A DNA stretch of 64,000 nt from Trueperaceae bacterium (GCA_034520945.1 JAXHNB010000009.1:128001-192000); one strand, 5' to 3'. Counted from the first letter of the stretch, positions 3,120 through 53,671 are shown. A program made the numbers and translations. The notes: generated by a model from the letters alone, not told the origin.

Positions 3120-3233
3120 GCGACGGATGGGGGTAAGGCCGTTCCGGTGACGCCTGACCCGGGAGCGTAGGATCGCGGCGCTACACTCGCGCCACGCTCG
3201 TCGCACGATTCTAAGCCCCTCGGAGGAGCCGCC

Positions 3234-9072: not shown

Positions 9073-9090
9073 TGCCGGGACGCTGATCGG

Positions 9091-30796: not shown

Positions 30797-33379
30797 TCAG
30801 GCGGCGGAGACTTTACGGATCGCCACGCGCGTGGGCCCGCCGTGCCGTGCCGTCGATCCGCTCAAGCGATCGTACTCGGCGGGGAGGATCTGATTGTTGT
30901 TCCCGCCGCGCGGGATCCGATTGGCGAAGTCCTTCGCGGCGACGCGGCCGTAGGCCCAGTGGCCCTGGCCGAAGCACTTGGCGACCGTTCCGGGGCGGAC
31001 GCCTTCCCAGAGCTTGACGTGGGCGGTGAGCGTGCCGGTCGGCGATTCGACCGAGACCGTGTCGCCATTCGCCAGCCCCAGATCTTGCGCGTCGACCGGG
31101 TTGATCTTCAGGACGTCGTCCCAGATCTCGTCGCCCGGGTCGGCGTTCTTGTGCGCCTGGTACCAGGTGCAGTTGGCCGAGCGCCCTTCGCGGTTCAGGC
31201 GGCTACGGTGCTCGAAGAAGACGTAGGGATAGTCCGCCGCATCGCCTTCCCGGTAGGCCGGCTCGTAGTGCGGGAGGAAGGCATGCTCTCCGCGGGCCTC
31301 GTACTTCGTGGCCTCGAGCACCCGGTCGACGTCGACGTCGTGGCGTTCGGCGTGGGCAGTCAAGGCGTCCTTGAGGGTTTCGGAGTAGAACTCGAACTTG
31401 CCGGTCTTCGTGGCGAAGTTGTCGATCTTCTCGCCGGGCTCGAAGCGGTGGCTGTTCCAGACGCCCTTGTCGACGAAGTCGTCCCAGCCTTGGAGCCGGT
31501 CGCCGTACTGGCCGTAGTCGGGATGCGTGGCGTCCCAGGCGGGCCGCGTCAGCAGCTTCAGGGCGTTGAGCGTGAAGCTGGCGCCGTCGGTCGGTGCCGC
31601 GCCGGTCTCGGGGTCGGCGAACTCCTCCTTGAAGTAGCGATGCATGTCGTCGAAGCCGCGATCCGCCAGCGCCTCGGCCAGCATCCAGGGGATCTCCGTC
31701 TCGTCCTGGCGGACGTCCCACATCGGCTCGATCATGCGCTGCGTCAGGCTGGCGTAGCCGTAGAGGTTCTGCTTGCTCTTGAGGAAGCCCCACTTCTCGA
31801 ACATCTGCTGCGCGGCCGGCAGCACGATATCGGCGAAGTGGCTCATCTCGGAGGCGTTCGTGGTGATGTGCGCGAAGAACGGCAGCTTGGAAAGCGCCCG
31901 CTCCCAGCGGCCGGCGCCGGAGGCCGAATACGCGAAGTTGCACCAGTAGCCGATCAGCACCTGGATCGGGTAGGGATCCTCGTCGAGGATGCCGTCGGCG
32001 GCACGGTTGGTGACGACGCCCCCGCCGCTCTTGCCGCCCTTGAGCGAGGGGAACTCCAGGGTGCCCCGCTGGTCGATCTTCGGCCGGGAGGCGTTCTCCT
32101 GCGCCAACGCGTCCTGGTAGGCGCTGAAGTCGGGGATGCCGTCCGCCACGACCTTGGCCTTCTGCACCACGCCGCCGCGGGCGTCGGCGGCGCCCACCAG
32201 GCCGTTGAGGGCGTGGGCCGCCATGGCGGTGTAGCCGCCGCGAACCTGCATCGCGGCGCCGGGCGACACCCAGCTGATGGCCTGGGGGGCGGCGCGCGCG
32301 AAGCCGATGGCGACGCGGCGGATCTGCTCCGCGGGGATCCCGCAGAGGGGCGCGGCCCACTCCGGGGTGCGGTCCTTGAGCTCCAGGTTCCACCAGCGCA
32401 CCACGCCGTTGGTGTGGACCTCCTCGAAGCTCTCCTCGTCGACGGTCCGCCCGCTCCTGAAGGCGCCCTCGCCACCCACGAAGTCGCCGACGAACGAGCG
32501 GCTCCAGAGCCCTTCGGTGAGGATCACGTGGGCCATGGCCACCGCCAGGGCACTGTCCTCGCCCGGGATCACGGGCAGCCACTCGTTGGCCTTGGCGGCC
32601 GTGGCGGACAGGCGCGGATCGACCACCGCGATGGTGGCACGGTCGCGCACATCGCCCCAGACGTTGATGGCGTGGGGCACCTGGCGGTTGGTGGACACCG
32701 GATCCGCACCCCAACAGAGCACGTAGCGCGTCTCGGTCAGATCGTAATCGCGGTAGTCCCAGAACCCTTCCGTGTAGTAGGAGCCGAACTTCTCGCCTTC
32801 GGCGCAGATCGCGGAGTGGCTGATGCCGTTGGGCGAGCCGAAGATCTTCGGAACCGCGCTGTAGATGATGTCGCGCAGGTAGCTGTAGCGACCGCGGAAC
32901 ACCGCGAACTGATGGGTGTCGCCCGTGTCGCGCAGCTCGATCATCTTGTCGGCGATCGTTCCGATCGCCTCGTCCCAACTGATCGGTACGAAGCCCGGGT
33001 CCTCGTCGCGCCCCTTGTTCGGGTTGGTGCGCTTCATGGGCACCTTGAGCCGGTCGGGATCGTACAGCTGCTGAAGCGCCATGTGGGGGCGCGGGCAGAT
33101 CTTGCCGTGATTGGCCTTGCTGTAGGGGTTGCCCCGCACGCTGACCGCACGACCGTCGACCACCTTCACCTGCACGGGGCACCAGCTGGTGCAGCCCTGG
33201 CAGGTCGAGGCCATCCAGGCGCCGGTAGCGGAAGCAGTCCCCTGCGCCGGGCTTTGGCTGAACGCGCTCAGCAGCGGGCCGCCGCCCGCAGCGGCCAGGA
33301 AGCCGGCGCCCGTGAACTGCAGGAACCGCCGGCGGTCGATGCCGGGGGGTGTGGCTGGTTTTTGTTCGTCTCTACGCAT
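30797..33379 (-). CDS. arrA: Respiratory arsenate reductase catalytic Mo-bisPGD subunit
   Basis: Tat leader DRRRFLQ; CQGCTSWC...C Fe-S motif; ArrA-diagnostic RGRY; catalytic loop ISHSAICAEGEKFG; HRSRLNREGRSAN. Confidence 0.9.
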   Translation of the reverse strand: MRRDEQKPATPPGIDRRRFLQFTGAGFLAAAGGGPLLSAFSQSPAQGTASATGAWMASTCQGCTSWCPVQVKVVDGRAVSVRGNPYSKANHGKICPRPHMALQQLYDPDRLKVPMKRTNPNKGRDEDPGFVPISWDEAIGTIADKMIELRDTGDTHQFAVFRGRYSYLRDIIYSAVPKIFGSPNGISHSAICAEGEKFGSYYTEGFWDYRDYDLTETRYVLCWGADPVSTNRQVPHAINVWGDVRDRATIAVVDPRLSATAAKANEWLPVIPGEDSALAVAMAHVILTEGLWSRSFVGDFVGGEGAFRSGRTVDEESFEEVHTNGVVRWWNLELKDRTPEWAAPLCGIPAEQIRRVAIGFARAAPQAISWVSPGAAMQVRGGYTAMAAHALNGLVGAADARGGVVQKAKVVADGIPDFSAYQDALAQENASRPKIDQRGTLEFPSLKGGKSGGGVVTNRAADGILDEDPYPIQVLIGYWCNFAYSASGAGRWERALSKLPFFAHITTNASEMSHFADIVLPAAQQMFEKWGFLKSKQNLYGYASLTQRMIEPMWDVRQDETEIPWMLAEALADRGFDDMHRYFKEEFADPETGAAPTDGASFTLNALKLLTRPAWDATHPDYGQYGDRLQGWDDFVDKGVWNSHRFEPGEKIDNFATKTGKFEFYSETLKDALTAHAERHDVDVDRVLEATKYEARGEHAFLPHYEPAYREGDAADYPYVFFEHRSRLNREGRSANCTWYQAHKNADPGDEIWDDVLKINPVDAQDLGLANGDTVSVESPTGTLTAHVKLWEGVRPGTVAKCFGQGHWAYGRVAAKDFANRIPRGGNNNQILPAEYDRLSGSTARHGGPTRVAIRKVSAA

Positions 33380-33390
33380 GACGTCCCCCT

Positions 33391-34344
33391 TCAGAAGAAC
33401 AGGTTCACGGGCAGGTCGGCCTGCCCGCCCAGGACCAGCGCCAAACGGAAGAAGTACCCGCCGACAAGGATCATGCCGCTGGTGAGAGCGATCGTCGCGA
33501 CCTGGGCGCCGCGACGGCGTCGGGCCTCGCCGAGGAACAGCTCGGTGCCGCCCAGGAGCAGGGGTAGGACCAGCCCCAGGACGATGCCGCCGTACCAGAA
33601 CATGGGGCCGTACGCCTCGTTGGCGGCCGCGAGCGCTTGTTGCTGGTCGAGGCTTCCGAGTCGGAGGCCCAACCACCACACGAAGGCGGTGCCGAGCTGC
33701 ATGACCAGCAAGGTGAGCAAGGTGTTGCGCACGACGCGAAGGTCGTCGAGGAAGCGCCCGAGGTGATCACGATCGGACAGCCTGCCGCCGATCCACATGC
33801 GCACCAGGTGGGCCAACAGCACGACGGCGACACCGGTCGTCGCGAAGGCCAGCAGGGCGGCGATGACGGTGGGCCCGGTGTTCCACAGGGGCCGGCTGTT
33901 CAGCACCGACAGCAGCAAGCCGTGATACGCCCCGACGATGACGGTGAGGGGAACGAGCGCGATGCCCAACGCATTGCGCCAGCGCACGTTCGCCTCGGCG
34001 TCACGCCAGGACCAGGCGTACAGAAGGCCGACGCCCACGAGCAGCGGTTGGAAGATTCCGCCCCACCACAACGGCGACAGGGGACTGACATTGACGTAGT
34101 TCTGCCACGCGTTGAAGGGCCTGCCCATCTTGGCCATGATCAACACGAGGCCGATCGCGACGAGGACCGGGCCGATCCAGGCCGCCGTACGGGTCAGCCG
34201 GCGGTACCGCCCCGCGAACGCATAATTGACGAGGACCGCGAACAGGATGGCGCCGACGCCGGCACCGCCCAGGTACAGGTCCATGGCGACGCGCCAGTCC
34301 CACGCGGGGCCGGATTGGATGTTGAAGACGATCTCAGGATCCAT
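33391..34344 (-). CDS. arrC: NrfD/PsrC-family membrane anchor (ArrC)
   Basis: WDWRVAMDLYLGG, GRP, SPLWWG, YHGLLL...RPLWN; about 8 TM segments. Confidence 0.85.
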   Translation of the reverse strand: MDPEIVFNIQSGPAWDWRVAMDLYLGGAGVGAILFAVLVNYAFAGRYRRLTRTAAWIGPVLVAIGLVLIMAKMGRPFNAWQNYVNVSPLSPLWWGGIFQPLLVGVGLLYAWSWRDAEANVRWRNALGIALVPLTVIVGAYHGLLLSVLNSRPLWNTGPTVIAALLAFATTGVAVVLLAHLVRMWIGGRLSDRDHLGRFLDDLRVVRNTLLTLLVMQLGTAFVWWLGLRLGSLDQQQALAAANEAYGPMFWYGGIVLGLVLPLLLGGTELFLGEARRRRGAQVATIALTSGMILVGGYFFRLALVLGGQADLPVNLFF

Positions 34345-34966
34345 GGCGTGCTCCCTCCATCGCGAGGCCGGAGGCCTTCGCGGGTCCGTGCTCGATGAGG
34401 GTACGAAGCGTCTCCGCAGCAGCGGCGAAGGCGGGATGGTCGGCGTGTTCGGCCACCGCGGCCGCGAACGCCGGCAACCACGGCATCATCTGGTCGCGCC
34501 AGAAGCCATCGAGCTGCGCCAGCGCTTCACCGTCGCCTTCCTCGAGGCCTCGGTAGCCGAGCAGGTAACAGAACTCCAGTTCGACGGCGACGTGGTCGGG
34601 CAACTCGCGTGGACCGTCGGCGGGGCCGAGACCGGCGGCGGCGTAGGCTTTGGCAGCTGCCTGCGCGACCGGCCCCATCATCCCCTGGTCGGTCTCCAGG
34701 AACCACGACGCGTACGGCGGAACGCGCACCTCGAAGGGGCCGAGGAACAAACGCGCGTAGCTCCGGGCGAACGCCTCGCGTTCGCTGGACGCCAGTCGAT
34801 CGGCGAGCCGCCGCATGCGGACCGCGAGCGCGTCGGTGTCGTCTCCGGCCGCCTGCCGGCAGAGCGCGGCCCGCTCGTCCAGATCGTCGCCAGGAAGGGC
34901 GAAGACGCGGGCGAGAGCGCGCGCGGCGTTGCAGAAGCGCACGGTCGTCGCGAGATCAGAAGTCAC
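34334..34966 (-). CDS. arrD: TorD/DmsD-family maturation chaperone (ArrD)
   Basis: YARLFLGP, PPYASWF, ELPDHVAVELEF. Confidence 0.88.
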   Translation of the reverse strand: MTSDLATTVRFCNAARALARVFALPGDDLDERAALCRQAAGDDTDALAVRMRRLADRLASSEREAFARSYARLFLGPFEVRVPPYASWFLETDQGMMGPVAQAAAKAYAAAGLGPADGPRELPDHVAVELEFCYLLGYRGLEEGDGEALAQLDGFWRDQMMPWLPAFAAAVAEHADHPAFAAAAETLRTLIEHGPAKASGLAMEGARHGS

Positions 34967-35894
34967 GGATGTAGAACACATTGGGACGGGTTCCCTTTTC
35001 CGGGTTCAGCACCCGATGGCTGTGCGTGGCGAGCGCCTGCGATACGGCACTGTCTGGATCGTTGAGATCGCCGAAGATCCTGGCGTCGGCGGGGCACGCC
35101 TCGACGCACGCCGGAACGTCACCCTGGACGAGCCGGTGGTCGCACATGGTGCACTTCTCCACGATGCCCTTGGGGCGAACGCCGGGCAGCGTGGCTTCGC
35201 GCCCCGGATTGTAGACGGGAAGCGGCACGCCGGCCGCTTCGGCGACCTCCTCGCCCGTGCTGGTCACGCCGGCGATCGCTGCGCGGCCTTGGTACAGCAC
35301 GTCGGCGTGCGGTTCGCCCTTGTTGTAGTAAATGGCGCCGTAGGGGCAGGCGACCTGGCAGGCGCGGCAGCCGATGCACTTGTCGGCGTCGTGCATGGTG
35401 AGCCCATCCTCGGTCTTGTGCATCGCCGTGGTCGGGCAGTTGGCCACGCAGGGCGCGTCGGCGCAGTGGTTGCACATGGTCGGGACGTAGCGCCACTGCG
35501 TGTCGGGGAACGTGCCGCGGGTCTCGAGCATGTGGTTGGACCATGCGAACGAGTGGGGGACGTTGTTCTCGCGCTTGCAGGCGATGTCGCAGCCGGAACA
35601 GCCGACGCAGCGGTGGAGATCGATCACCATCCCCCAGCGACGCTCACGCTTCGGCTTGTCCAGCGAGCGTTGCACGTCGCGACGCATGCGCGTGACCATG
35701 TCGTCGTCGCCGACCTCCATCGCGGGGTCGAAGGTCGCCCCGGCCTCGTCCTGCGCCTGGGCGTGGGTCCCTGCCACCACCGCGCCGGCCACCGCAGCCG
35801 TCGCGGCGTTCGCGAAGAACGCCCTGCGGTCGACCTTGGCCTCTGGCCCCGAACGGTCGCCGGTCGTGTCGTTGCGTTCGTGTTCTGCCGCCAT
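34956..35894 (-). CDS. arrB: 4x[4Fe-4S] electron-transfer subunit (ArrB-like) with its own Tat leader
   Basis: DRRAFF...AQA leader; WGMVIDLHRCVGCSGCDIAC, CNHCADAPCVANCP, CIGCRACQVACP, EKCTMCDHR...PACVEACP; AAAGGA RBS. Confidence 0.88.
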   Translation of the reverse strand: MAAEHERNDTTGDRSGPEAKVDRRAFFANAATAAVAGAVVAGTHAQAQDEAGATFDPAMEVGDDDMVTRMRRDVQRSLDKPKRERRWGMVIDLHRCVGCSGCDIACKRENNVPHSFAWSNHMLETRGTFPDTQWRYVPTMCNHCADAPCVANCPTTAMHKTEDGLTMHDADKCIGCRACQVACPYGAIYYNKGEPHADVLYQGRAAIAGVTSTGEEVAEAAGVPLPVYNPGREATLPGVRPKGIVEKCTMCDHRLVQGDVPACVEACPADARIFGDLNDPDSAVSQALATHSHRVLNPEKGTRPNVFYIRDF

Positions 35895-35935: not shown

Positions 35936-36249
35936 GTGCCAGGGCTCACGAGGTTGCTAGGGACGCTCGTCCCCGCGCACACGCTCGGTCGTGGGCCACG
36001 TCATGGGGCGGCGCGGAGGTCGAGGGTACGCTGTACCCGATGCTCCACGGGCTCGAGCGCGAGGGGTTGCTGCGCGGCGACGTGCGCGTCGTGGGCGGTC
36101 ATCAGCGCAAGGAGTACCGGCTCACGCCCGAGGGGGCCCGCACGCTCGACGCCGCCCGCGCACACCTTCACGATCTCGCCGGCGAGGTGCTGCACGGCGA
36201 GGGACCGGCGACGATCCGCGACGAACAACGAACGGACGATGATGGCTGA
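35936..36249 (+). pseudogene. PadR-family regulator remnant (frameshift/deletion)
   Basis: GPRHG in one frame; GTLYPMLHGLEREGLL...RKEYRLTPEG in another; N-terminal part shortened. Confidence 0.7.
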
Positions 36250-37546
36250 GGACAGCGAGGCAACGGGCCGGCTGCGGCGCGAGGTGGGGACCTTCGGCGC
36301 GGTGATGATGGGGCTGGGCAGCATCGTCGGCACCGGCGTGTTCGTCTCGATCGGCGTCGCCGCCGGCATCGCCGGCCCCTCCGTGGTGCTGGCGATCGCG
36401 ATCGGCGCGATGGTCGCGACCTTCAACGGCCTCTCCAGCGCCCAGCTGGCCGCCGCCCATCCCGTCTCGGGCGGCACCTACGAGTACGGCTACCGCTTCC
36501 TGACCCCCCGCTTCGGCTTCACCGCCGGCTGGACGTTCCTGCTGGCCAAGAGCGCCTCCGCCGCGACCGCCGCGCTCGGCTTCGCCGGCTACGTGTTGGG
36601 CGCCTTCGGGGTCGCAGCCCGCGCCCCGCTGGTGCCCCTAGCCGTGGTGCTGATCGCCGCCCTGACCGCCGTCGTGCTGGCCGGGATCCGCCGCTCCAAC
36701 GCCACCAACATCGCCATCGTCACCATCACGCTCGCCAGCCTGGCGTTCTTCGTGCTGGCCGGATTGCCGAGCCTGGTCGAACGCGGCGGCGCCGCCTTCG
36801 TGCCGTTCTTCGATCCGGAGCCGGGCCGCGGCGGGCTGCCTGCGCTGCTGTACGCCTCGGCGCTGATGTTCGTCGCCTACACCGGCTACGGACGCATCGC
36901 CACCCTCGGGGAGGAGGTACGCGACCCGGCCCGCACCATCCCGCGCGCCGTGGTGGCGGCCCTGCTGGTGGTGATGGCGCTGTACGCCGCCGTGGCGTTG
37001 GTCGGGGTCGGCACCGCCGGCACCGACGCGCTCTCCGCGGTGGAGGCGCGCACCGCGCCGCTCGAGACGGCGGCACGGGGGTTCGGCGTGCCCTTCGCGC
37101 CGCAGGTGCTGGCGATCGGGGCGGTCACCGCCATGGTGGGCGTGCTGCTCAACCTGATCCTCGGCCTGTCGCGTGTGCTGCTGGCAATGGGACGACGCCG
37201 GGACGTGCCGGCCATGTTCGGGCGCGTGAACGAGGCCGGCACCACCCCCGTCCCCGCCGTCGTCGCGGTCGGCCTCTTGATCGCAGGGCTGGCCCTGCTG
37301 GGCGACGTGCGCGTCACCTGGTCGTTCAGCGCCTTCACCGTGCTGGTGTACTACGCGATCACCAACCTGGCGGCGCTTCGGCTACCGCCCGAGATGCGCC
37401 GCTTCCCGCGCTGGGTGTCGATCGCCGGACTCGCCTCCTGCCTGACCCTGGCGTTCTTCGTCGATCCCCCGGTGCTGATCGTGGGCACGGGGCTGCTGGC
37501 CGCCGGGTTGGTCTGGCACGAGGCGGCACGGCGCGTACGTGGCTGA
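36239..37546 (+). CDS. APC family amino-acid permease
   Basis: GLGSIVGTGVF, HPVSGGTYEYG, FVAYTGYGRIATLGEEVRDP; about 12 TM segments. Confidence 0.92.
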   Translation: MMAEDSEATGRLRREVGTFGAVMMGLGSIVGTGVFVSIGVAAGIAGPSVVLAIAIGAMVATFNGLSSAQLAAAHPVSGGTYEYGYRFLTPRFGFTAGWTFLLAKSASAATAALGFAGYVLGAFGVAARAPLVPLAVVLIAALTAVVLAGIRRSNATNIAIVTITLASLAFFVLAGLPSLVERGGAAFVPFFDPEPGRGGLPALLYASALMFVAYTGYGRIATLGEEVRDPARTIPRAVVAALLVVMALYAAVALVGVGTAGTDALSAVEARTAPLETAARGFGVPFAPQVLAIGAVTAMVGVLLNLILGLSRVLLAMGRRRDVPAMFGRVNEAGTTPVPAVVAVGLLIAGLALLGDVRVTWSFSAFTVLVYYAITNLAALRLPPEMRRFPRWVSIAGLASCLTLAFFVDPPVLIVGTGLLAAGLVWHEAARRVRG

Positions 37547-37567: not shown

Positions 37568-38818
37568 TCAACTCCGCTCGAACACGGTGGCGTTGGCCAT
37601 CCCGCCGCCCTCGCACATCACCTGCACCCCCAGCGCGCCGCCGCGGTCGCTCAACGCGTGCAGCAGCGTGGTACTGAGCTTCGCGCCCGACGCGCCGAGC
37701 GGGTGCCCGTTGGCGATGGCGCCGCCCCGCACGTTCACACGCGCGGGGTCGGCCCCGGTCTCCGCCAGCCAGGCCAGCACCACCGGCGCGAACGCCTCGT
37801 TCACCTCGAACAGGTCGACGTCATGGACGTCCAGCCCGGCACGGGCCAGCACGCGGCGGGTGGCCGGGATCACGCCGGTCAGGTTCAGAATCGGATCGCT
37901 GCCGACCGCCACGGAGGCGCGCACGCGGGCCAGCGGCGTGCGGCCTTCGGCCTGCGCGCGCTCGCGCGACATGACGAGCAGGGCCGCCGCGCCGTCGGCC
38001 AGTTGCGAGGCGTTGCCGGCGTGCACGCGCCACTGCGCCTCGGGGAAGCGCCGTTCCCAGTGCGCCTCTCGGAAGGCGGGTTCCAGGGAGGCCAGCGCCT
38101 CGGGGGTGGTCTCGGGGCGGACGCCCTCGTCGCCCCTCAGCATGTCGCCGGTCGGCCCGTCGCCCCGGTCCACCGCCAGGGGGAGAAGCTCTGCCTCGAC
38201 GGCGCCCGACGCGGCCGCGGCCGCCGCCCGCCGGTGCGAGCCGGCGGCCCAGGCGTCCAGCTCCGCGCGCCCCAAATCCCAGCGGGCGGCGATCAGCTCG
38301 GCCGAGACGCCCTGCGGCACCAGGCCACCCGGGTAGCGTTCCGCGATGCGTGGGCCGTAGGGGTCGGCCCCGGCCGCGGCGGAGCCCATCGGCACGCGGG
38401 ACATCGACTCGACGCCGCCGACCAGCACCGCGTCCTGGTCGCCGGCCCGGATCGCCTGCGCGGCGAACGCCAACGCCTGTTGCGAGGACCCGCACTGGCG
38501 GTCGAGGGTGGCGGCCGGCACCGCTTCGGGCAGCCCCGCCGCAAGCGCCGCGTTGCGCGCCAGGTTGAACGACTGCTCGCCCGCCTGCCCCACGCACCCG
38601 ACCAGCACGTCGTCCAGGGCGGCGTCCCGGCCGTCCGGGGCGTAGCCGGCCCGCGCAAGCGCGGCGCGCAGCGCCTCGGCGGCGAGGTCGACGGGGTGCC
38701 AGCCGTGCAGCGCGCCGCCGGGCTTGTCGCGCCGGGCGGGACGGCCCTTGGCGGTGGGGGTCCGCACGGCGGAGACCAGCACGGCGTCGCGCGACCCGGG
38801 GGGAGGAACGGCGCTCAT
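37568..38818 (-). CDS. Thiolase (acetyl-CoA C-acyltransferase)
   Basis: AVRTP, DRQCGSSQQA, NEAFA, GHPLGASG, MCEGGG. Confidence 0.95.
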   Translation of the reverse strand: MSAVPPPGSRDAVLVSAVRTPTAKGRPARRDKPGGALHGWHPVDLAAEALRAALARAGYAPDGRDAALDDVLVGCVGQAGEQSFNLARNAALAAGLPEAVPAATLDRQCGSSQQALAFAAQAIRAGDQDAVLVGGVESMSRVPMGSAAAGADPYGPRIAERYPGGLVPQGVSAELIAARWDLGRAELDAWAAGSHRRAAAAAASGAVEAELLPLAVDRGDGPTGDMLRGDEGVRPETTPEALASLEPAFREAHWERRFPEAQWRVHAGNASQLADGAAALLVMSRERAQAEGRTPLARVRASVAVGSDPILNLTGVIPATRRVLARAGLDVHDVDLFEVNEAFAPVVLAWLAETGADPARVNVRGGAIANGHPLGASGAKLSTTLLHALSDRGGALGVQVMCEGGGMANATVFERS

Positions 38819-40125
38819 GGTGCCGCCCCGCCGTCCACGCGCCGCAGGCCACACCAGCCGGCCATGAAGCGGGCCAGCACCCGGGTCACCTGGTGCACGC
38901 TCTCCAGGTCGACCGACTCGTCGAGCCCGTGGATGGCGCGGGCCTCCGGGCCGTAGCAGGTGGTGGGAATGCCGTGATGGCCCAGGATCCGCGCGTCGGT
39001 GGTGGCGGTGCTGGCCAGCGCCTCGGGCGTGCCGCCCACGGTCCGGCGGTGCGCCTCCGCCAGCGCCGGCAGCGGCGGCGCGTCCCAGGCGATGGTGTAG
39101 GGCTCGGCGTGGAACCCGACCCACGCCAGGGTGGGCGGCTGGTGGCGCAGCACCGGGTGGTCGGCCGCGAACGCGGCGATCCGCTCGGTGACGGTGCGCT
39201 TCATCTCGTCCGCGGAGGTGCCCGGGTAGAGCCCGACCCGCATTTCGAAGGTGCAGGAGGCCGGCACGGAGGAGGGCCACTCACCCCCCTCGATGCGTCC
39301 GACGTTGAAGTTGATGGGGTGCACCGCGTCGCGGTACGCCTCGGGCCGCGCCTCGGGCCGGTTCATGTCGGCCTCGAGGGTGCGCAGGTCGTCGATGACC
39401 GCCCAGGCCAGTTGGATGGCGTCCGCGCCGGCGGTCGCCTCCAGCACGTGCGTCGGCCGGCCCTGCACGGTGACGCGAAGCCACAGCACGCCCAGTTGCG
39501 CAATCAGAAGCGTGTGGTCGAACGGCTCGGGAATCACGGCGGCGTCGGCGCGGTAGCCGCGCTGGACCGTGGCCAACGCCCCGTTGCCGCTGCATTCCTC
39601 CTCGATCACGCTTTGCAGCGTGACGTCGGCGGCGGGTGCGAAGCCGGCGTGGCGCAGCGCGCGGTAGGCGAACAGGTTGGCGGCCAACCCGGCCTTCATG
39701 TCGCCCGCGCCGCGACCGTACATGCGGCCCTCACGCACGACCGGCTCGAACGGCGGCGTGCGCCACGCCGCCTCGGGCCCGGCCGGCACCACGTCCACGT
39801 GCCCGTTCAGGATCAGTGAGCGCCCCGCGGGCGAAGGGGCACGGTGCACGCCCACCACCAGCGGGCGTTCCTCACTGGCCCAGTCCACCGGCGAGTAGCC
39901 CGCCATGTCGCGCAGGTCGTCCCAGCGGGCGTCCCAGGCGTCCACCTCCAGGCCGGCGCCTTCGAACGCGTCGGCCATGCGGCGCTGAATGCCGGCCTCC
40001 TGCCCCAGCACGCTGGGGAAGCGCACCAGCTCGGTCAGGAAGGCGGTGCGCTCCTCGCGCAGCTCCTCCACCGCCTGGTCCACGTCGGCGAGGGCCGCCT
40101 CGTCGACCCGTGTCGCGTCAGCCAT
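38815..40125 (-). CDS. ArgE/DapE-family (M20) deacylase, YodQ-like
   Basis: LNGHVDVVP, YGRGAGDMKAG, IEEECSG, IHGLDE. Confidence 0.9.
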   Translation of the reverse strand: MADATRVDEAALADVDQAVEELREERTAFLTELVRFPSVLGQEAGIQRRMADAFEGAGLEVDAWDARWDDLRDMAGYSPVDWASEERPLVVGVHRAPSPAGRSLILNGHVDVVPAGPEAAWRTPPFEPVVREGRMYGRGAGDMKAGLAANLFAYRALRHAGFAPAADVTLQSVIEEECSGNGALATVQRGYRADAAVIPEPFDHTLLIAQLGVLWLRVTVQGRPTHVLEATAGADAIQLAWAVIDDLRTLEADMNRPEARPEAYRDAVHPINFNVGRIEGGEWPSSVPASCTFEMRVGLYPGTSADEMKRTVTERIAAFAADHPVLRHQPPTLAWVGFHAEPYTIAWDAPPLPALAEAHRRTVGGTPEALASTATTDARILGHHGIPTTCYGPEARAIHGLDESVDLESVHQVTRVLARFMAGWCGLRRVDGGAAP

Positions 40126-40828
40126 CGTGCGCTCCTTCCTCTGAAGATTCGGCGCGCGCGCCGCGCCAGGGGCACACCTCCGAGGCGTCGACCTCGGCGC
40201 CGGTGGCGGCCCGGAGCTCCTCCAACGTGATCCCGGGCGCGAGCTCGAGAAGCCGGAAGCGGTCGCCGGCGGGCGCCAGCACCGCCCGCTCCGTGACGAT
40301 GCGCGTCACCGCGGCCCGGGCGGTGCGCGGCAGCGTGCAGCGCTCGACCAGCTTGGGCGCGCCGTTCCGGTCGGTGTGTAGGGTGGTGATGATCACGCGC
40401 GGCACCTTCTGCGCCAGCTCCATCGCCCCGCCGACGCCGGGCGCGGCGCGGCCGGGCACGCGCCAGTTGGCCAGGTCGCCCCGGACGTCCACCTCGAACG
40501 CGCCGAGGATGCACACCCCGACCCGCCCGCCGCGCACCAGCGCGAACGAGGTGACGCTGTCCAGGTAGGCCGCGCCCGGAAGGACCGTGACGTACCGGCC
40601 GCCGGCGTCGATCAGGTCGGGGTCCTCGGCGCCGGGCGCGGCGGCCGGGCCCATGCCCAGGATGCCGTTCTCGGCGTGGACACGGACCGTACCGTCCTGC
40701 GGCAGGTGCGCGCCGACCTCGGTCGGCAGCCCGATGCCGAGGTTCACCACATTGCCGGACGCGACCTCCAACGCGGCGCGGGCGGCGATGCGCGCGCGGG
40801 CGGCGGCGCGCGAATCGGGCGGGGTCAC
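40118..40828 (-). CDS. 3-oxoacid CoA-transferase subunit B (YodR-like)
   Basis: VNLGIGLPT, AENGILG (catalytic Glu), GDLANW, GVGGAMEL. Confidence 0.92.
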   Translation of the reverse strand: MTPPDSRAAARARIAARAALEVASGNVVNLGIGLPTEVGAHLPQDGTVRVHAENGILGMGPAAAPGAEDPDLIDAGGRYVTVLPGAAYLDSVTSFALVRGGRVGVCILGAFEVDVRGDLANWRVPGRAAPGVGGAMELAQKVPRVIITTLHTDRNGAPKLVERCTLPRTARAAVTRIVTERAVLAPAGDRFRLLELAPGITLEELRAATGAEVDASEVCPWRGARAESSEEGAHDG

Positions 40829-41550
40829 GGCCGCTCCCCGCGCCGGATGCGGGCGGCCTTGGTGCCGGGGTCGAAGCCCTCCGGCACCGCAATCACCGCG
40901 TCCACGAACGCGCCGGGGGTTACCACGTGATCGGGATCCAACGGCTCGTCGGACAACGCGTCCACCTCGACCCACACCCGCTCGGCGGCCGTCGCCATCA
41001 GCGGCGCGAAGTTGCGAGCCGTGGCGCGGTAGCTCAGGTTGCCGGCGCGATCGCCGCGGTGCGCGTGGACCAGGGCCACGTCGGCCCGCATCGCCGGCTC
41101 GATCGTGAACGTGCGGCCGCGCCAGGTCACGACCTCGCGCGGCTCCGGCGTGTCCGGCAGCAACTCCGGATCCAGGTCGCCGAGGAAGGCCGGTAGACCC
41201 GCCCCGCCGCAACGGATGCGTTCGGCCAGCACCCCCTGCGGGTGGATCTCCACCTCGATGCGTCCTTCGTTCCAGGCGGCCACCGCCTCGCGGTTGAGGC
41301 CGATGTGCGACGCGATCAGGCGACGAATGCGCCCCTCGGCCAGCAGGCGCCCCACCCCCATGCCGGGCTCGTTGGCGTCGTTCTTGATGACGGTGAGATC
41401 CCCCCCGCCGAAGCGCGCCAGGGCGTCCAGGAGCAGGAACGGCGTGCCCGGCTCGCCGAACCCGGAGACCATGACCCGAGCGCCATCGGGGACCTCGCGG
41501 GCCAGCGCCTCCGCCTGCGCCTGCGCCTGCTCGGCCGCCGCCGTGATCAC
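40825..41550 (-). CDS. 3-oxoacid CoA-transferase subunit A (YodS-like)
   Basis: DGARVMVSGFG...GTP, PQGVLAERIRCGGAG, ARNFAPLMA. Confidence 0.92.
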   Translation of the reverse strand: MITAAAEQAQAQAEALAREVPDGARVMVSGFGEPGTPFLLLDALARFGGGDLTVIKNDANEPGMGVGRLLAEGRIRRLIASHIGLNREAVAAWNEGRIEVEIHPQGVLAERIRCGGAGLPAFLGDLDPELLPDTPEPREVVTWRGRTFTIEPAMRADVALVHAHRGDRAGNLSYRATARNFAPLMATAAERVWVEVDALSDEPLDPDHVVTPGAFVDAVIAVPEGFDPGTKAARIRRGERP

Positions 41551-42890
41551 GCGGCAACCCCGAGGTCGGCCTCGGCCCGCGCCAGGGTGCGGTCCAAGCG
41601 CGCCAACAGCTCCTCCACCTCGTGCTCCGCGATGGTGAGGGGGGGCGCCACCAGCACGTGGTCGCCCGACAGCCCGCCGCCACCCCGGCGCGGGTACAAC
41701 AACAGGCCCTCCTCCGCCGCCGCCAGCGTGACGCGTTGCGCCACGTTCTGAGAGAACGGAAACGGGGCGCGCCCTGTGCGGTCGGCGACGAACTCCAGGC
41801 CCCACAGCATCCCCTTGCCGCGCACGTCGCCGATCATGGGATGCCGGTCGGCCAGGTGGCGCAGGGACCGCCCCAATTCCTCGCCCACCGTGGCGGCGCG
41901 AATGATCAGCCCCTCCTGCTCGATCACCTCGAAGACGGCCAGCCCCACGGCGCACGACAGCGGGTTGCCGGCGTAGGAGAAGCCGTGCGGGAAACTGCCG
42001 GCGTCCAGCACCGTCTCCGCCATCTCGTCACGGCACACCACCGCCCCCAGCGGGGTGTAGCCCGCACCCAGCCCCTTCGACAACGCCAGGATGTCGGGCT
42101 GCGCATCCGGCTCCCAGTGCTGGTAGGCGCAATACGCGCCGGTGCGGGCCGAGCCGGTCATGACCTCGTCGTAGATCAGCAGAATGCCGTGCCGGCGCGC
42201 GATCTCGGTGATCTTCGCGAAGTAGTCATCGGGCGGCACGGTCGCGCCGGTGGCGGCGCCGCCGATCGGTTCCAGCACGAAGGCGGCGACGGTGGACGGG
42301 TCCAGCGATTGCAGGACGCGCTCCAGGTCCTCGGCGCAGGCGAGCCCGCACGACGGCCATTCGAGCCCGAACGGGCAGTGATAGCAGGTCGGCGCGGTGA
42401 CGTAGTTCGGCTCGACCATCATCGGGGCGTAGCCGTCGGTCAGCGGCCGATAGCCGGTCGCCGCCAGCGCGCCGAGGGTAGCGCCGTGATAGCTGGGGAA
42501 ACGGCTCACGATGCGGTAGCGGCGATCGTCGCCGCGGGCGGCGTGGTAGCTGCGGGCCAGCTTGATCGCCGTCTCGACCGCCTCGGAGCCGCCGGAGACG
42601 AAGAACACGCGGTCCAGGCCTTGGGAGAGCTGCGCGCCCAGGCGTGCGGCGAAGGTGCGGGCCGGCTCGTTCTCGAACTGGGTGCGGTACGCGAAGGTGA
42701 CCTTCTCGGCCTGGCGTCGCATCGCGTCCAACACATGGGGGTGGGCGTGCCCTACGGTGGCGACCACCGCCCCGGAGCAGCCGTCGAGGTAGCGACGACC
42801 GTCCTGGTCGATCAGCCACACGCCCTCGCCGCGATCGACGGTGGGGAGGGCGGCACGCGTCTGATAGAAGAGGGGGTTCCGTGCGGACAT
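41547..42890 (-). CDS. Class III PLP aminotransferase (YodT-like)
   Basis: YLDGCSGA, SGGSEAVETA, SYHGATLGAL, EPIGGAATG, DEVMTG, LSKGLGAGYTPL. Confidence 0.92.
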   Translation of the reverse strand: MSARNPLFYQTRAALPTVDRGEGVWLIDQDGRRYLDGCSGAVVATVGHAHPHVLDAMRRQAEKVTFAYRTQFENEPARTFAARLGAQLSQGLDRVFFVSGGSEAVETAIKLARSYHAARGDDRRYRIVSRFPSYHGATLGALAATGYRPLTDGYAPMMVEPNYVTAPTCYHCPFGLEWPSCGLACAEDLERVLQSLDPSTVAAFVLEPIGGAATGATVPPDDYFAKITEIARRHGILLIYDEVMTGSARTGAYCAYQHWEPDAQPDILALSKGLGAGYTPLGAVVCRDEMAETVLDAGSFPHGFSYAGNPLSCAVGLAVFEVIEQEGLIIRAATVGEELGRSLRHLADRHPMIGDVRGKGMLWGLEFVADRTGRAPFPFSQNVAQRVTLAAAEEGLLLYPRRGGGGLSGDHVLVAPPLTIAEHEVEELLARLDRTLARAEADLGVAA

Positions 42891-43081
42891 GCCCGCACTC
42901 TACGGCCTCGTACGGTCGGCGGGGCAAGGGGCGTCGGCGCGGCGTCCGTTCGCGACCCGGCCGGCGTATGCGCCCGCGTACGCTCGGCCGGGGAGGTAGG
43001 GGCGCCCGACCGGAACTTCGGGGTCTACAGCGCGTTCGTGTCGGGCGACCAGTGGGTGGGGCCGGTGGTCGCCGGCGCACG

Positions 43082-43112
43082 AAAAACAGGCGCCCGGTCG
43101 GAACCGGACGCC
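43082..43112 (-). terminator. Intrinsic terminator after the cold-shock gene
   Basis: GGCGTCCGGT-TCCG-ACCGGGCGCC followed by TGTTTTT on the minus strand. Confidence 0.75.
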
Positions 43113-43136
43113 CGCAGATTCAGCTGGCGCTTTCGT

Positions 43137-43499: not shown

Positions 43500-44852
43500 T
43501 GTCACGTGGGCGCATTGACTCAAATAGAATCGTACCGAAGGGGTCTTGGATGACTCATAAGTAATTCCGACCGTGGAGGTTGTGTCGTGAAAAAAAACGG
43601 GTGGGTTGTCCGTGACCAGCAGACGTGAGTACGTGAAGACCATGCGGAAGCGGTATGGGGCGGCGGTCGGCCGCAGGGAGCGCAGCGACCTGCTCGACGA
43701 GCTGGTGAACGTGGCGGGCTACACCCGGAAGCACGCGATCAGCCTGATGAACCAGCGCGAGCCGAGGAAGGCCACGAGTCGGGGAAGCGGACGGGTCGGC
43801 CGCGCGCGTACCGGCACTGCCTGGCGGCCGTGGAGGTCCTCTGGGAGACGCTGGACTACTGCTGCGCACAACGCTTGCACCCGCAGCTCGTGCCGCTCGC
43901 TGAGACCCTCGCGCGGCACGGCGAGCTCGAACTGCCGCGCGAGGTGCGCGAGGAACTCGCCCTGATCAGCCGCGCGACGCTGGCGCGCCGGTTGCGGGAG
44001 TTGCCTCGCCGGAAGCCGAAACCGCTGCTGTCCGGGCAGCACCCGAGTCGGCTTTTGAAGTCGCAGGTGCCGGTCGATCGCTACCGCTGGAACGAACACC
44101 GGCCCGGCGCGCTCGAGGTGGACCTGGTGGAGCACAGCGGGGGTCGTGCGGGCGGTCACCACGCCTACACGCTGTCCGTCGTCGATGTCGTCAGCGCCTG
44201 GAGTCACCGCCGCGCGGTGATGGGCAAGAGCCAAGCCGCCGTGCAGGAGGCCCTCACGGCCGTCCTGAGGGCCTGGCCGACGCGCGTGTGGGCGTTGCAC
44301 AGCGACAACGGCAGCGAGTTCCTCAGTGCTCACCTGATCCGTCACTGCGAGGCGACAGGCATCGCGTACCACCGCAGCCGGCCCTACCGGAAGAACGACA
44401 ACGCGCACGTGGAACAGAAGAACCGGCAACTCGTCCGCGAGATCGTCGGGTACGAACGGATCGACACGCCCACAGGCTTGCAGTGGCTGAACCGCATCTA
44501 CGACGTGCTCGACCCCTACGCCAACCTGTTCCTCCCCAGCCTCAAGGTCACCGAGAAAACCCGGCAGGGAAGCAAGGTCACCAAGCGCTACGACACCGCC
44601 CGCACGCCCCTGCAAAGGCTCCAAGAGAAGGACGCCCTCCTGCCGCACGCAACCGCGGAGCTCGCCCAGCAGCAACGAGAAACCAACCCCCTCCACCTCC
44701 GCCGCACCCTGGACAATCTCCAAGGCGAAGACCCCAACCACATGCCCCTCGCCGAAGCCGCCGACTGACCCCCCAGGGTACGAACCACATCTGAGTCACC
44801 CACCCCGCCCCCGGTACGATCTACTTCTGAGTTGACACGGTGGGGCCGTACA
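43500..44852 (+). mobile_element. Insertion sequence, rve/DDE type (ISNCY/IS481-like); exact ends uncertain
   Basis: Two TGACTCA-N-ACCG repeats at left (43516-43537, 43551-43573) and two inverted copies at right (44776-44798, 44812-44834); TGT/ACA candidates at 43500 and 44837 or 44852; no target duplication found. Confidence 0.8.
43587..44768 (+). pseudogene. DDE transposase/integrase with two homopolymer frameshifts
   Basis: [49 protein letters not shown]; frame breaks at A8 (43590-43597) and G4 (43781-43784). Confidence 0.85.
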
Positions 44853-49905: not shown

Positions 49906-50937
49906 TCACATGCTGGCGCCGGCGCCACGGGCCTGATCCAGCCACTCGTCCACCTGGGCGCGGTTGTTCTCGATCCACTCCTGGGCCATCGCCGCGACCT
50001 CATCATCGCTGCTTTCGCCCTCGCTGATGCGCGCCGTCATCTCGGAGATGTCGGCAAGCGGAATCTCGACGGCGTCGAGCAGCTCGTGCGCGGCCGGGTT
50101 GGCCTCCAGGAAGTCGCGGTTCGCGACGGTGCGGATGTCGTTGGCGACGTACCCGAACCGCAGCGTGTCGCTGACGGCGGTGTCGCCCATGCCCTCGGCG
50201 ACCATGGCGTCCTCGAGGCCTTCCTGGCCTTCGGAGGGGATGATCTCGGGCACGTTGATCCAGCGCACGTCTTCGCCCGGCACCAGCTGGACGGTGGTGA
50301 AGTTCGGCGTCCAGGTGTAGTACAGCACCGGCTCGTCGTTGCGGTAGCGGGCCAGCGCGTCGGCGAAGGACGCGGCGTAGGACGCGGTGATCACGTTCAC
50401 GTGATCATGCAGGTCGTAGGCGTCCATGTGGTGGCTGATGACCTGTTCGCAGCCCCAGCCGGGCGGGCAGCCGACCAGGTCGGCCTTGCCGTCGCCGTTG
50501 GCGTCGAACGCTTCCTTGACTTCCTCGCGCTTGAAGTCCTCGAGCGAGGTGATGTCGTACTCCTCGATGGATGCGGCGTCCACCAGGTAGCCCTGCAGGG
50601 CGCCCCGCTCGACGATGGTGCCGACGACGGCGGCGTTTTCCTCGAAGTTCTCGGGCAGCTGGGCGTTGTGCAGGGGGAACCAGCCGTTGGCCCAGTAGTC
50701 CACGTCGCCCTGCGTCACGGACTGGTAGAAGATCGGGTTCGACACGGACTGGGCGTCCTGCACATCGTAGCCGAGCTCACCGAGGAGCTGGGCGAAGATG
50801 GCCTCGATCGGCAGGGCGGACTGCCAGGTCGCGATGCCCGGCTGGATGCTGACGCCCTCACCGGGCTGGTCCTGCGCGACCGCGCCGCCAAGGGCGAGGC
50901 CGAACGTAACGGTCAATGCGATTGCGAGTTTACGCAT
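49906..50937 (-). CDS. proX: Glycine betaine/proline ABC transporter substrate-binding protein
   Basis: WFPLH, QGYLVD, GDGKADLVGCPPGWGC, YYTWTP. Confidence 0.93.
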   Translation of the reverse strand: MRKLAIALTVTFGLALGGAVAQDQPGEGVSIQPGIATWQSALPIEAIFAQLLGELGYDVQDAQSVSNPIFYQSVTQGDVDYWANGWFPLHNAQLPENFEENAAVVGTIVERGALQGYLVDAASIEEYDITSLEDFKREEVKEAFDANGDGKADLVGCPPGWGCEQVISHHMDAYDLHDHVNVITASYAASFADALARYRNDEPVLYYTWTPNFTTVQLVPGEDVRWINVPEIIPSEGQEGLEDAMVAEGMGDTAVSDTLRFGYVANDIRTVANRDFLEANPAAHELLDAVEIPLADISEMTARISEGESSDDEVAAMAQEWIENNRAQVDEWLDQARGAGASM

Positions 50938-51204
50938 CTATGCGTACCTCCTTCTATACATGAGACGTTTCGGAAAGACCGCTCTCATATGACCGCCTCG
51001 GAAGGCGGTGCGCACGGATCGACACGAGGATCGAACCTAGCGTCGGGCTGCGCGACGAGCATGCGGCTTCCAGAAGGTGAGCGTACCGTACGCACGCTTC
51101 CTACGTGCCCAATGCTAAAGGGTCGCGTGCCGCTCCAAGGTAGCCTGAGGTCTTGACAAGCATTTAGGAGGGGAAAGGGCGCCGGCACGCCGGCGCCGCC
51201 CCCG

Positions 51205-52050
51205 TCAAGACCGCTCGCCGAAGCCCTGGGTGATGCGGTCCAGAATGATCGCCAACAGCACGATGCCGAGGCCGCCGATCGCCGCCTGGCCGACGTTGAG
51301 CGAGTTCAGGCCGCGGAACACCGGCGTGCCCAGCCCGCCCGCACCGATCAGCGCCGCGATCACGACCATCGACAGCGACAGCATGATCGTCTGGTTCAGG
51401 CCCGCCATGATGGTCGGCATGGCCAGGGGCATCTGGATCTTGAACAGGATCTCCCGCGGGCTGGAGCCGAAGGCGACACCTGCCTCCACCGCGTCCTCCT
51501 GCACCCCCCGGATGCCGAGGTTGGTGAGTCGGATGATGGGGGGCAGCGCAAAGATGATGGTGGCCAGCACGCCCGCGACCGTCCCGATCCCGAACAGCAT
51601 CACCACGGGCACCAGGTACACGAAGGCCGGCGTGGTCTGCATCACGTCCAGAACGGGCCTCAGCCCCGACGCGAAGCGGTCGCTGCGCGCCGCGGCGATC
51701 CCCAACGGGATCCCCACGATGACGCAGAAGACCACCGCCGCCAACACCATGGCGAGCGTGGTCATGGTCAGGTCCCACATGCCGGTGAAGCCCACAACGG
51801 ACAGCGCGACGAACGTGAACGCCGCGACCTTCCAGTCCACCGCCTTCCAAGCCAGCAGCACGATCAGGATCACCATGATCGTCGGTGGGATGAACAGCAG
51901 GGTGATCTCGATGTTCTCCAATACCTGCTCGACCGGCCACTTGATCGCCTGGAAGAATCCTCGGGCGTTGGTGGACAGCCAATCGACGGCGGCTTGGATC
52001 CAGTTGTCCAGGGGGAGGCTGTAACTGTCGAACACGTTCAGGATGCTCAT
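51205..52050 (-). CDS. proW: Glycine betaine/proline ABC transporter permease
   Basis: LDVMQTTPAFVYLVP, PPIIRLTNLGI, NQTIMLSLSMVV. Confidence 0.95.
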   Translation of the reverse strand: MSILNVFDSYSLPLDNWIQAAVDWLSTNARGFFQAIKWPVEQVLENIEITLLFIPPTIMVILIVLLAWKAVDWKVAAFTFVALSVVGFTGMWDLTMTTLAMVLAAVVFCVIVGIPLGIAAARSDRFASGLRPVLDVMQTTPAFVYLVPVVMLFGIGTVAGVLATIIFALPPIIRLTNLGIRGVQEDAVEAGVAFGSSPREILFKIQMPLAMPTIMAGLNQTIMLSLSMVVIAALIGAGGLGTPVFRGLNSLNVGQAAIGGLGIVLLAIILDRITQGFGERS

Positions 52051-53297: not shown

Positions 53298-53671
53298 GTG
53301 CGCCTCCTATCACTGCGAAACGGCCGACCGAGGCGGGTCGCCAGCAGCGACCAAGTCGACCATGCGACGTCGGCCCCCCGCGAGGCCCACCATCGGCGCG
53401 GACGCGCCGACCCCCCCGATCTACCGTCCGTCGCACGAACGGTCGTGGAGGGGCGCTGCGCGTACACGCACGTATGCAGCACAGTGTACAGGTTCGCGCC
53501 CCTCCCGGTACGGCCTTTCACGGATCAAGGCGGCGTTCGGACCGTGTGCGACGGATCCGTCGGCGCCGCCCATACGCCGCACGGCGGCGAATCGTTCGAA
53601 GGGGCCGAAGGCGACGTCGCGCAAGGCGCCGGCCCACCGACCGCCGGGGCACCGGGTAGGCTGGCGCGGTC

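Follow-up and report, generated by a model that had tools for sequence, protein, structure and literature searches.

Introduction

Which compound is broken down by the five genes that lie, all on the minus strand, at positions 37568-42890 of a 64,000-nucleotide stretch of DNA from a Trueperaceae bacterium (GCA_034520945.1, JAXHNB010000009.1:128001-192000; this whole stretch is referred to below as the window)? The genes encode a class III, pyridoxal phosphate-dependent aminotransferase (AT), the subunits A and B of a 3-oxoacid coenzyme A (CoA)-transferase, a deacylase of the M20 family and a thiolase, and an earlier note, made from the sequence alone, had read them as a candidate catabolic pathway for the osmolyte N6-acetyl-beta-lysine, a major compatible solute of methanogens and of some bacteria. 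The window, with a G+C content of about 72%, belongs to a genome of 3.47 Mb in 10 contigs that is 97% complete, and the closest named relatives, judged by the proteins of the window, are metagenome-assembled genomes (MAGs) of Trueperaceae.

The answer favored here, which upholds the reading of the earlier note in part and by indirect evidence, is that the operon would degrade a beta-amino acid imported in N-acylated form, with N6-acetyl-beta-lysine as the most probable one, by means of a transferase/thiolase variant of a pathway that ends in 4-aminobutyrate (GABA), and to this reading we give a probability of roughly 0.55. The steps of the pathway have been inferred from the gene families and from their comparative context, in which the principal element is the exchange of one set of enzymes for another beside the same AT.

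Two Modules Beside One Aminotransferase

A scan with an alignment of relatives of the AT, with one genome retained per species, gave 80 loci with AT identities of 47-83%, whose gene content was scored by tblastn with thresholds set by ourselves and a simple open reading frame caller. In 23 of these loci the AT is accompanied by a CoA-transferase pair, as it is in the window; an M20 gene is present in 20 of them, and HDAC, rhizobial-type GNAT and BKACE genes in none. In loci that lack the transferase, BKACE (PF05853) is the gene after the AT, with a GNAT acetyltransferase and then an HDAC-family deacetylase behind it: among the 43 loci with BKACE, HDAC is found in 40, GNAT in 32 and M20 in 7 (in L037 verified as PRK06837 by model, in the others scored by tblastn). 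A further 14 loci, several of them on truncated contigs, have neither module, nor BKACE, and include M20 in 2 cases, HDAC in 5 and GNAT in 3. The CoA-transferase pair and BKACE do not occur together in any of the 80 loci. The deacylases, for their part, cross between the two variants, as three BKACE loci are without HDAC and two of these (L021 and L037) have M20 in its place, and M20 enzymes of the PRK06837 type are found both with the CoA-transferase (the window and L007) and with BKACE (L037).

In a quick tree, all 81 ATs form one clade with respect to the paralogues from the genome of the window. The AT of the window falls within a clade that includes the BKACE-type locus L005 and whose sister group is the proteobacterial BKACE clade (support 96) rather than the CoA-transferase clade of Thermodesulfobacteriota, and the type of module has changed at least four times along this tree. 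The exchange is seen even within the window's own family: among 121 genomes sampled from it, the transferase pair comes after the AT (74-83% identity) in 7 of the 10 others of the window's genus, and two genomes of another genus have the AT beside BKACE.

BKACE acts on beta-keto acids only, and thus the product of the AT is very probably a beta-keto acid, formed from a beta-amino acid. The CoA-transferase with the thiolase, on the one hand, and BKACE, on the other, would then be two ways of removing the first two carbons of this beta-keto acid, in other words, one catalytic step carried out by two unrelated enzyme sets. The proposal of the earlier note that the five genes serve together to break down an amino compound is supported.

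The fact that the pair (23 loci) and BKACE (43 loci) exclude one another beside the AT, together with the overlap at four of four junctions, the keeping of the five-gene order across phyla, and the finding that an aldehyde dehydrogenase is not a regular partner of the AT (from the annotated loci that were read, without a tally over the 80; there is an aldehyde dehydrogenase in L009 and an aldehyde:ferredoxin oxidoreductase in L020 and L032), argues against a looser grouping of the genes, in which the AT, as an omega-transaminase, would act on polyamines or omega-amino acids, the M20 enzyme would be a general deacylase or peptidase, and the CoA-transferase and thiolase would do no more than activate acetoacetate and split it, as happens in the use of ketone bodies. 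Such a grouping, which we regard as improbable, would draw on the putrescine, polyamine and GABA transaminases that appear at lower scores among the relatives of the AT in the PDB, on the frequency of PotABCD-like transporters among the neighbors, on the textbook route of acetoacetate through a ScoAB-type transferase and a thiolase, and on the generic character of the NCBIfam names.

It could also be supposed that the CoA-transferase and thiolase do nothing but clear the acetoacetate released by a BKACE encoded elsewhere, so that this would be the classical route with one gene displaced. Two of the five genomes searched (G001 and G002) do contain BKACE genes far from the cluster, and lysine fermentation clusters combine Kce with AtoAD and a thiolase, according to an excerpt of the source (PMC3149608). 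Nevertheless, neither the PF05853 profile nor tblastn with a BKACE query finds a BKACE in the 97%-complete genome of the window, and the profile is likewise without a match in G003 and G004, that is, in two of the four other CoA-transferase-cluster genomes. For the genome of the window a BKACE encoded elsewhere is thus rejected, its transferase and thiolase would not merely be clearing acetoacetate made by such an enzyme, and the supposition is hardly credible.

The Gene Order in Other Genomes

The order AT, CoA-transferase A, CoA-transferase B, M20 and thiolase recurs in MAGs of Trueperaceae (L002-L004), in many Thermodesulfobacteriota, among them a cultured isolate, Desulfopila aestuarii DSM 18488 (L007), and in one MAG of Ca. 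Eisenbacteria (L014), and as it is found again in other phyla, the arrangement is not one of chance. The thiolase, which the earlier note took to be the step added to the gene set of Bacillus, occupies the same slot in 16 of the 23 CoA-transferase loci, and this part of the proposal holds up; BKACE is missing both from the genome of the window and from the B. subtilis control (among 14 control genomes, PF05853 has a match in Deinococcus radiodurans only). The thiolases in the fifth slot of L007, L011, L012 and other Thermodesulfobacteriota are 33-43% identical to that of the window, and the AT, the transferase subunits and the M20 enzyme of these loci are 39-57% identical to their counterparts in the window; recruitment of the thiolase may have occurred on more than one occasion.

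ABC (ATP-binding cassette) importers, either of the SBP_bac_3 (polar-amino-acid) type or with a PotD-like SBP_bac_8 protein, and regulators of the IclR or LysR families are found in or beside the clusters, which is the signature of an uptake-and-degradation unit, and the binding proteins are 48-60% identical between the CoA-transferase and the BKACE variants. In L007, L012 and L015 the AT and the transferase are separated by the genes of a polar-amino-acid importer, with an IclR regulator upstream, and the data suggest that L038 shares this layout; other Thermodesulfobacteriota loci have a PotABCD-like importer. Upstream of the AT in L011, L032, L036 and L060, also from Thermodesulfobacteriota, there are a PotD-like binding protein, PotA, a protein of the proline-racemase family and an Amidohydro_3 protein of about 540 amino acids (L048 is rearranged), often followed in these clusters by an amidase of the N-carbamoylase family or of the M20D type. 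Such accessory genes would suggest a wider or different set of N-substituted substrates in that phylum.

An acetyltransferase as a member of the operon was considered and rejected: a GNAT of the Acetyltransf_3 family lies between csp and the AT in L004 (= L099) alone; L003, the other CoA-transferase loci and the window are without it.

Identity of the Substrate

The first indication of which beta-amino acid is involved comes from the end product. A GabT-like gene lies beside 7 of the 23 CoA-transferase loci and beside none of the other 57; five of the seven were checked, and all of them exceed the cut-off of TIGR00700. Of the 29 loci in the sample from the window's family, 7 have a GabT-like gene immediately next to the AT, and the genome of the window has a GabT of its own (C5:411879-413138; 509.6 bits, with the TIGR00700 cut-off at 506.65). 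If the end product is a C4 omega-amino acid, the starting compound would be a C6 molecule aminated at positions 3 and 6, as beta-lysine is, and the loss of a C2 unit from such a C6 beta-amino acid is in agreement with the linkage to GABA transaminase.

A third layout, GabT, AT and SBP_bac_3, is found within the window's family (L108, L109, L110, L113, L115, L116 and L121), with transferase and BKACE absent within 1.5 kb. The AT of L108, which is more distant from that of the window and is the one scanned of this layout, is above the equivalog cut-off of PRK06917 (NF005375) with 581.9 bits.

The presence of an acetyltransferase and a deacetylase around the cleavage step fits a temporary protection of the 6-amino group; the unprotected 6-amino-3-oxohexanoate should cyclize. 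As regards the origin of the compound, the earlier note had observed that kamA and yodP are absent from the window, which proved correct, and the absence extends to the whole 97%-complete genome, where neither the KamA family (TIGR00238) nor AblB (TIGR03827) has a match. The genome thus makes no beta-lysine by the known route, and the substrate must therefore come from outside, in line with the scavenging suggested by the note. AblB is above its cut-off in none of five other CoA-transferase-cluster genomes, and KamA in one of five BKACE-cluster genomes, a scarcity which indicates that most carriers are consumers rather than producers. The CoA-transferase clusters, with the rhizobial-type GNAT in 0 of 23 loci, would fit a substrate that arrives already acetylated, such as N6-acetyl-beta-lysine.

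If we accept this substrate, the degradation could have the following steps: (i) the AT would move the 3-amino group onto a 2-oxo acid and leave 6-acetamido-3-oxohexanoate; (ii) the two-subunit 3-oxoacid CoA-transferase would convert this into the 3-oxoacyl-CoA; (iii) the thiolase would cleave the latter into acetyl-CoA and 4-acetamidobutyryl-CoA, which could itself serve as the CoA donor of the next round, setting 4-acetamidobutyrate free; (iv) the M20 deacylase would strip off the acetyl group to give GABA and acetate; (v) and finally, the GabT encoded elsewhere in the genome would carry GABA towards succinate. The CoA-transferase and thiolase pair would thus stand in for the single BKACE of the related clusters, and the M20 enzyme for their HDAC-type deacetylase. 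An order in which the transferase precedes the transaminase was also considered, on the example of Kat, which an excerpt of the source describes as a class III enzyme that transaminates a beta-amino group, is HemL-like and acts on the CoA ester (PMC3149608). Kat, however, belongs to another subfamily, and the window's transferase is one for 3-oxoacids; the order with the free acid was kept, with the other as a conceivable alternative.

The same chemistry, in which a beta-amino acid is turned into a beta-keto acid and this is esterified with CoA, thiolyzed and freed of its acyl group, could be applied to a different substrate: another N-acyl- or N-carbamoyl-beta-lysine, an acylated 3,5-diamino acid, beta-glutamate or beta-glutamine, or 3-aminobutyrate bound in a small amide or peptide, to be opened first by the M20 enzyme. 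All the evidence for a beta-keto acid intermediate fits these compounds equally well, and the variety of the neighbors would be in keeping with them: the accessory amidases differ (N-carbamoylase in L036, L048 and L060; M20D in L011 and L032), Amidohydro_3 occurs in several loci, a neighboring BKACE is named for another keto acid, and 22 of the 43 BKACE loci, mostly rhizobial, have next to the AT a DMFA2_C-like protein of about 550 amino acids with a C-terminal domain (PF20254) like that of the N,N-dimethylformamidase beta-subunit (in L018, at 8297-9946, directly upstream of the AT), which may release the substrate from an amide. We nevertheless consider a different substrate less likely, because the linkage to GABA transaminase indicates a C4 omega-amino acid product and hence a C6 3,6-diamino skeleton, because the GNAT and deacetylase pair of the BKACE loci fits the protection of a second amino group, and because the enzyme set corresponds, one for one, to the beta-lysine route reported for Pseudomonas.

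Several observations weigh against N6-acetyl-beta-lysine as the substrate, or reduce the force of the comparison. The 80 loci come from related genomes, so that their counts are not independent, and the tree of the ATs is a quick version. The window contains neither a regulator nor a conserved transporter of the operon's own. The Amidohydro_3, proline-racemase-family, N-carbamoylase and M20D proteins of Thermodesulfobacteriota are left unexplained by the model. Without a GNAT, the acetylation step would be missing if free beta-lysine were imported, and the loci with an SBP_bac_3 importer lack GNAT when they are of the transferase type but always have it (8 of 8) when they are of the BKACE type. 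The AT and the M20 enzyme fall short of the cut-offs set for the equivalog models closest to them, the nearest solved structures are uncharacterized (3I4J for the AT, and 3PFO, a 'putative acetylornithine deacetylase', for the M20 enzyme), and neither the AT clade nor the PRK06837 subfamily of M20 has a known substrate. Finally, the BKACE of L044 matches NF053538, '3,5-dioxohexanoate:acetyl-CoA acetone transferase' (522.6 bits, cut-off 430), a name that points to another keto acid and that presumably derives from an in-vitro screen.

Structure of the Operon and Its Surroundings

The five genes fill their interval exactly, with overlaps of stops and starts at all four junctions (Table 1), and the G+C content at third codon positions, 0.92-0.94 in each of the five frames, matches what is expected of real genes in a window of this composition. 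These two features point to a single translationally coupled operon, and the set of five overlapping genes described in the earlier note is confirmed by the coordinates and by the Pfam and NCBIfam models.

Table 1. Features of the operon and of its surroundings in the window.
Feature	Positions	Strand	Description	Possible role
Class III aminotransferase (AT)	42890..41547	-	447 aa, ATG start; PF00202 (E 2e-97)	Proposed N6-acetyl-beta-lysine (beta-amino acid) transaminase yielding a 3-oxo acid
3-oxoacid CoA-transferase, subunit A	41550..40825	-	241 aa, GTG start; PF01144; GTGA overlap with the AT stop	
3-oxoacid CoA-transferase, subunit B	40828..40118	-	236 aa, GTG start; PF01144; GTGA overlap	
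M20 deacylase, ArgE/DapE family	40125..38815	-	436 aa, ATG start; PF01546 and PF07687; 8-nt overlap (ATGGCTGA)	Proposed deacetylase for 4-acetamidobutyrate or its CoA ester
Thiolase (acetyl-CoA C-acyltransferase)	38818..37568	-	416 aa, ATG start; PF00108 and PF02803; ATGA overlap with the M20 stop	Proposed 3-oxoacyl-CoA thiolysis
Upstream intergenic region	42891..43085	-	Between the csp hairpin and the AT start	Presumed promoter/operator
Terminator-like hairpin	43115..43086		13-bp stem and T run, at the end of the upstream csp gene	
APC-family amino acid permease	36236..37546	+	PF00324, PF13520; convergent, ends 21 bp from the thiolase stop; operon membership uncertain	Possible importer
IS481-like transposase	43830-44768	+	rve domain; between PepF and csp	
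Glycine-betaine-type ABC importer	49906-53306	-	OpuAC binding protein, permease, ATPase	
Molybdoenzyme cluster	30797-35894	-	Three genes	
Patatin-like phospholipase-domain protein	3171-5462	+	Two cyclic-nucleotide-binding domains, P-loop-like domain, patatin-like phospholipase domain	

Four of the proteins are above the cut-offs of their NCBIfam models: subunit A with 184.1 bits on TIGR02429 (cut-off 128.5), subunit B, whose gene adjoins that of subunit A, with 265.3 bits on TIGR02428 (cut-off 243.55), the M20 enzyme with 553.8 bits on NF005306 (PRK06837; cut-off 376), and the thiolase, in which both the N- and the C-terminal domains are found, with 399.2 bits on TIGR01930 (cut-off 240.55). 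The CoA-transferase and thiolase families, identified here by scores over curated cut-offs, act on 3-oxo acids and 3-oxoacyl-CoA, and the two transferase subunits are the sole copies that tblastn finds in the genome. The AT misses both of its best NCBIfam models, NF005375 (PRK06917; 444.4 bits, cut-off 535) and NF005685 (PRK07483; 424 bits, cut-off 485), although it is the top match of its genome, the next-best paralogue reaching 261 bits.

With a terminator-like hairpin at the end of the csp gene upstream, the operon probably has a start region of its own; a sigma-70 consensus was not found in the intergenic region. On the other side, the convergent APC permease could possibly act as the importer of the operon, but a dedicated importer is not supported, as the gene is without a match anywhere in L004, the closest relative with a long flank.

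Among the other genes of the window, the transposase is a local insertion, since it is missing from L003 and L004, in which PepF, csp and the AT operon are all present. The glycine-betaine-type importer, at a distance of about 7 kb, provides the neighborhood of the operon with a second uptake system for compatible solutes. The molybdoenzyme cluster resembles a respiratory arsenate reductase, with an ArrA-like subunit (1112 bits, cut-off 1600), an ArrB-like subunit (300 bits, cut-off 450) and an NrfD-type membrane subunit, all of them under the cut-offs, so that its substrate is uncertain. The patatin-like protein has an architecture of the neuropathy-target-esterase type.

Significance

The comparative pattern provides a testable assignment of every step, in two versions. 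It is conceivable, at slightly less than even odds, that there is a widespread pathway from (acetyl-)beta-lysine to GABA, with two interchangeable forms built on one AT clade: BKACE with an HDAC-type deacetylase, often with GNAT, or CoA-transferase and thiolase with an M20 enzyme of the PRK06837 type. To our knowledge, the beta-lysine route, whose biochemistry dates from around 1980, has never been tied to sequences, and we know of none for the enzymes numbered EC (Enzyme Commission) 2.6.1.65 and EC 3.5.1.51. The openly searchable literature, to which the search was directed and which leaves subscription papers outside its scope, yielded neither such an assignment of genes to the pathway nor any consumer of N6-acetyl-beta-lysine or its genes.

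If this were true, there would be gene candidates for both EC numbers and a function for YodQRST of B. subtilis, and, as most carriers lack lysine 2,3-aminomutase, these would be consumers of the osmolyte. In other words, Trueperaceae, sulfate reducers and marine Alphaproteobacteria of saline and anoxic habitats would consume an osmolyte released by methanogens and other producers. Both types have cultured carriers: Desulfopila aestuarii DSM 18488 for the CoA-transferase, and Thalassospira lohafexi, Ensifer oleiphilus and Zavarzinia marina for BKACE.

Comparison With Known Systems

The CoA-transferase and the thiolase of the window's operon have their counterpart in the modules for 3-oxoadipate (PcaIJ-PcaF) and for acetoacetate (ScoAB or AtoDA with a thiolase), in which a transferase of the same family (TIGR02429/TIGR02428) is likewise followed by a thiolase; the difference is that here an aminotransferase and a deacylase have been joined to the module in a single operon. 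Some of the related clusters do have IclR regulators of the PcaR/PcaU type beside them, with 134-137 bits, under the cut-off. A reading as PcaIJF, for 3-oxoadipate, was rejected, because the thiolase reaches 269 bits on PcaF (TIGR02430), far under the cut-off of 597.

The lysine fermentation cluster (KamA, KamDE, Kdd, Kce, Kal/Kat, AtoAD and thiolase) shares with the window a beta-keto acid step together with an AtoAD-type CoA-transferase and a thiolase, but its Kat is of another subfamily than the AT of the window, and it has no deacylase. Lysine fermentation itself was rejected for the genome of the window, which lacks the KamA family and BKACE (KamDE and Kdd were not searched for).

In B. 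subtilis the order of the genes is yodT-yodS-yodR-yodQ-yodP-kamA, so that the succession of AT, CoA-transferase A, CoA-transferase B and M20-type deacylase is the same as in the window. Excerpts of the literature identify YodT as BSU19740 and KamA as BSU19690, both SigE-dependent, treat yodP-kamA as AblB-/AblA-like genes that lead to N6-acetyl-beta-lysine on overexpression, and still list YodQ, R, S and T as of unknown function. The likeness to the Yod cluster claimed by the earlier note stands in the gene order. The AT and the M20 enzyme remain under the cut-offs of NF005375 and NF005373, which we take to be the models of YodT and YodQ: on NF005373 (PRK06915) the M20 enzyme has 306.6 bits against 428, as it belongs to NF005306 instead, and each of the two models is above its cut-off in one of the 14 control genomes. 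The adjacency of kamA and yodP does not hold either, since the yod operon has both and the window, like the whole genome, has neither kamA nor yodP/ablB, and the window adds a thiolase. By analogy, the cluster could work in the way proposed for the yod genes, its proteins being at most candidate members of the Yod clades, and as B. subtilis is also without BKACE, a thiolytic route would be needed there too.

The AT-BKACE-GNAT-HDAC clusters occur in Alpha- and Gammaproteobacteria (Ensifer, Brucella/Ochrobactrum, Mesorhizobium, Phyllobacterium, Thalassospira, Stappia and others). Their AT is orthologous to that of the window (47-54% identity, one clade) and their binding proteins are related, but they have BKACE in place of CoA-transferase and thiolase, and mostly HDAC in place of M20. 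The enzymes in them are of the same kinds as those of the acetyl-beta-lysine route of a Pseudomonas, which Barker and co-workers reportedly worked out around 1979-1981: free beta-lysine would reportedly enter through an acetyltransferase, and the four enzymes would be a GNAT, a transaminase, an acetyl-CoA-dependent cleavage enzyme that turns the keto acid into acetoacetate and 4-acetamidobutyryl-CoA, and a deacetylase-thiolesterase, with a separate GABA transaminase. Genes for this route are not assigned in the openly searchable literature, where searches with the intermediates and the EC numbers gave no relevant text. With the reported Pseudomonas route the window, together with the GabT of its genome, would share the transamination to 6-acetamido-3-oxohexanoate, the 4-acetamidobutyryl unit, the deacetylation to GABA and the separate GABA transaminase; it differs in having CoA-transferase and thiolase, with neither acetyltransferase nor BKACE. 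The earlier note had given activation by CoA followed by cleavage to acetyl-CoA as the described route; this is what the cluster itself would do, but as an account of the earlier biochemistry it would have to be corrected, as the route that Barker's group reportedly described cleaves the keto acid with acetyl-CoA to acetoacetate. This is a cleavage of the BKACE type, and thus what the window would encode is a variant of the pathway rather than the route as described.

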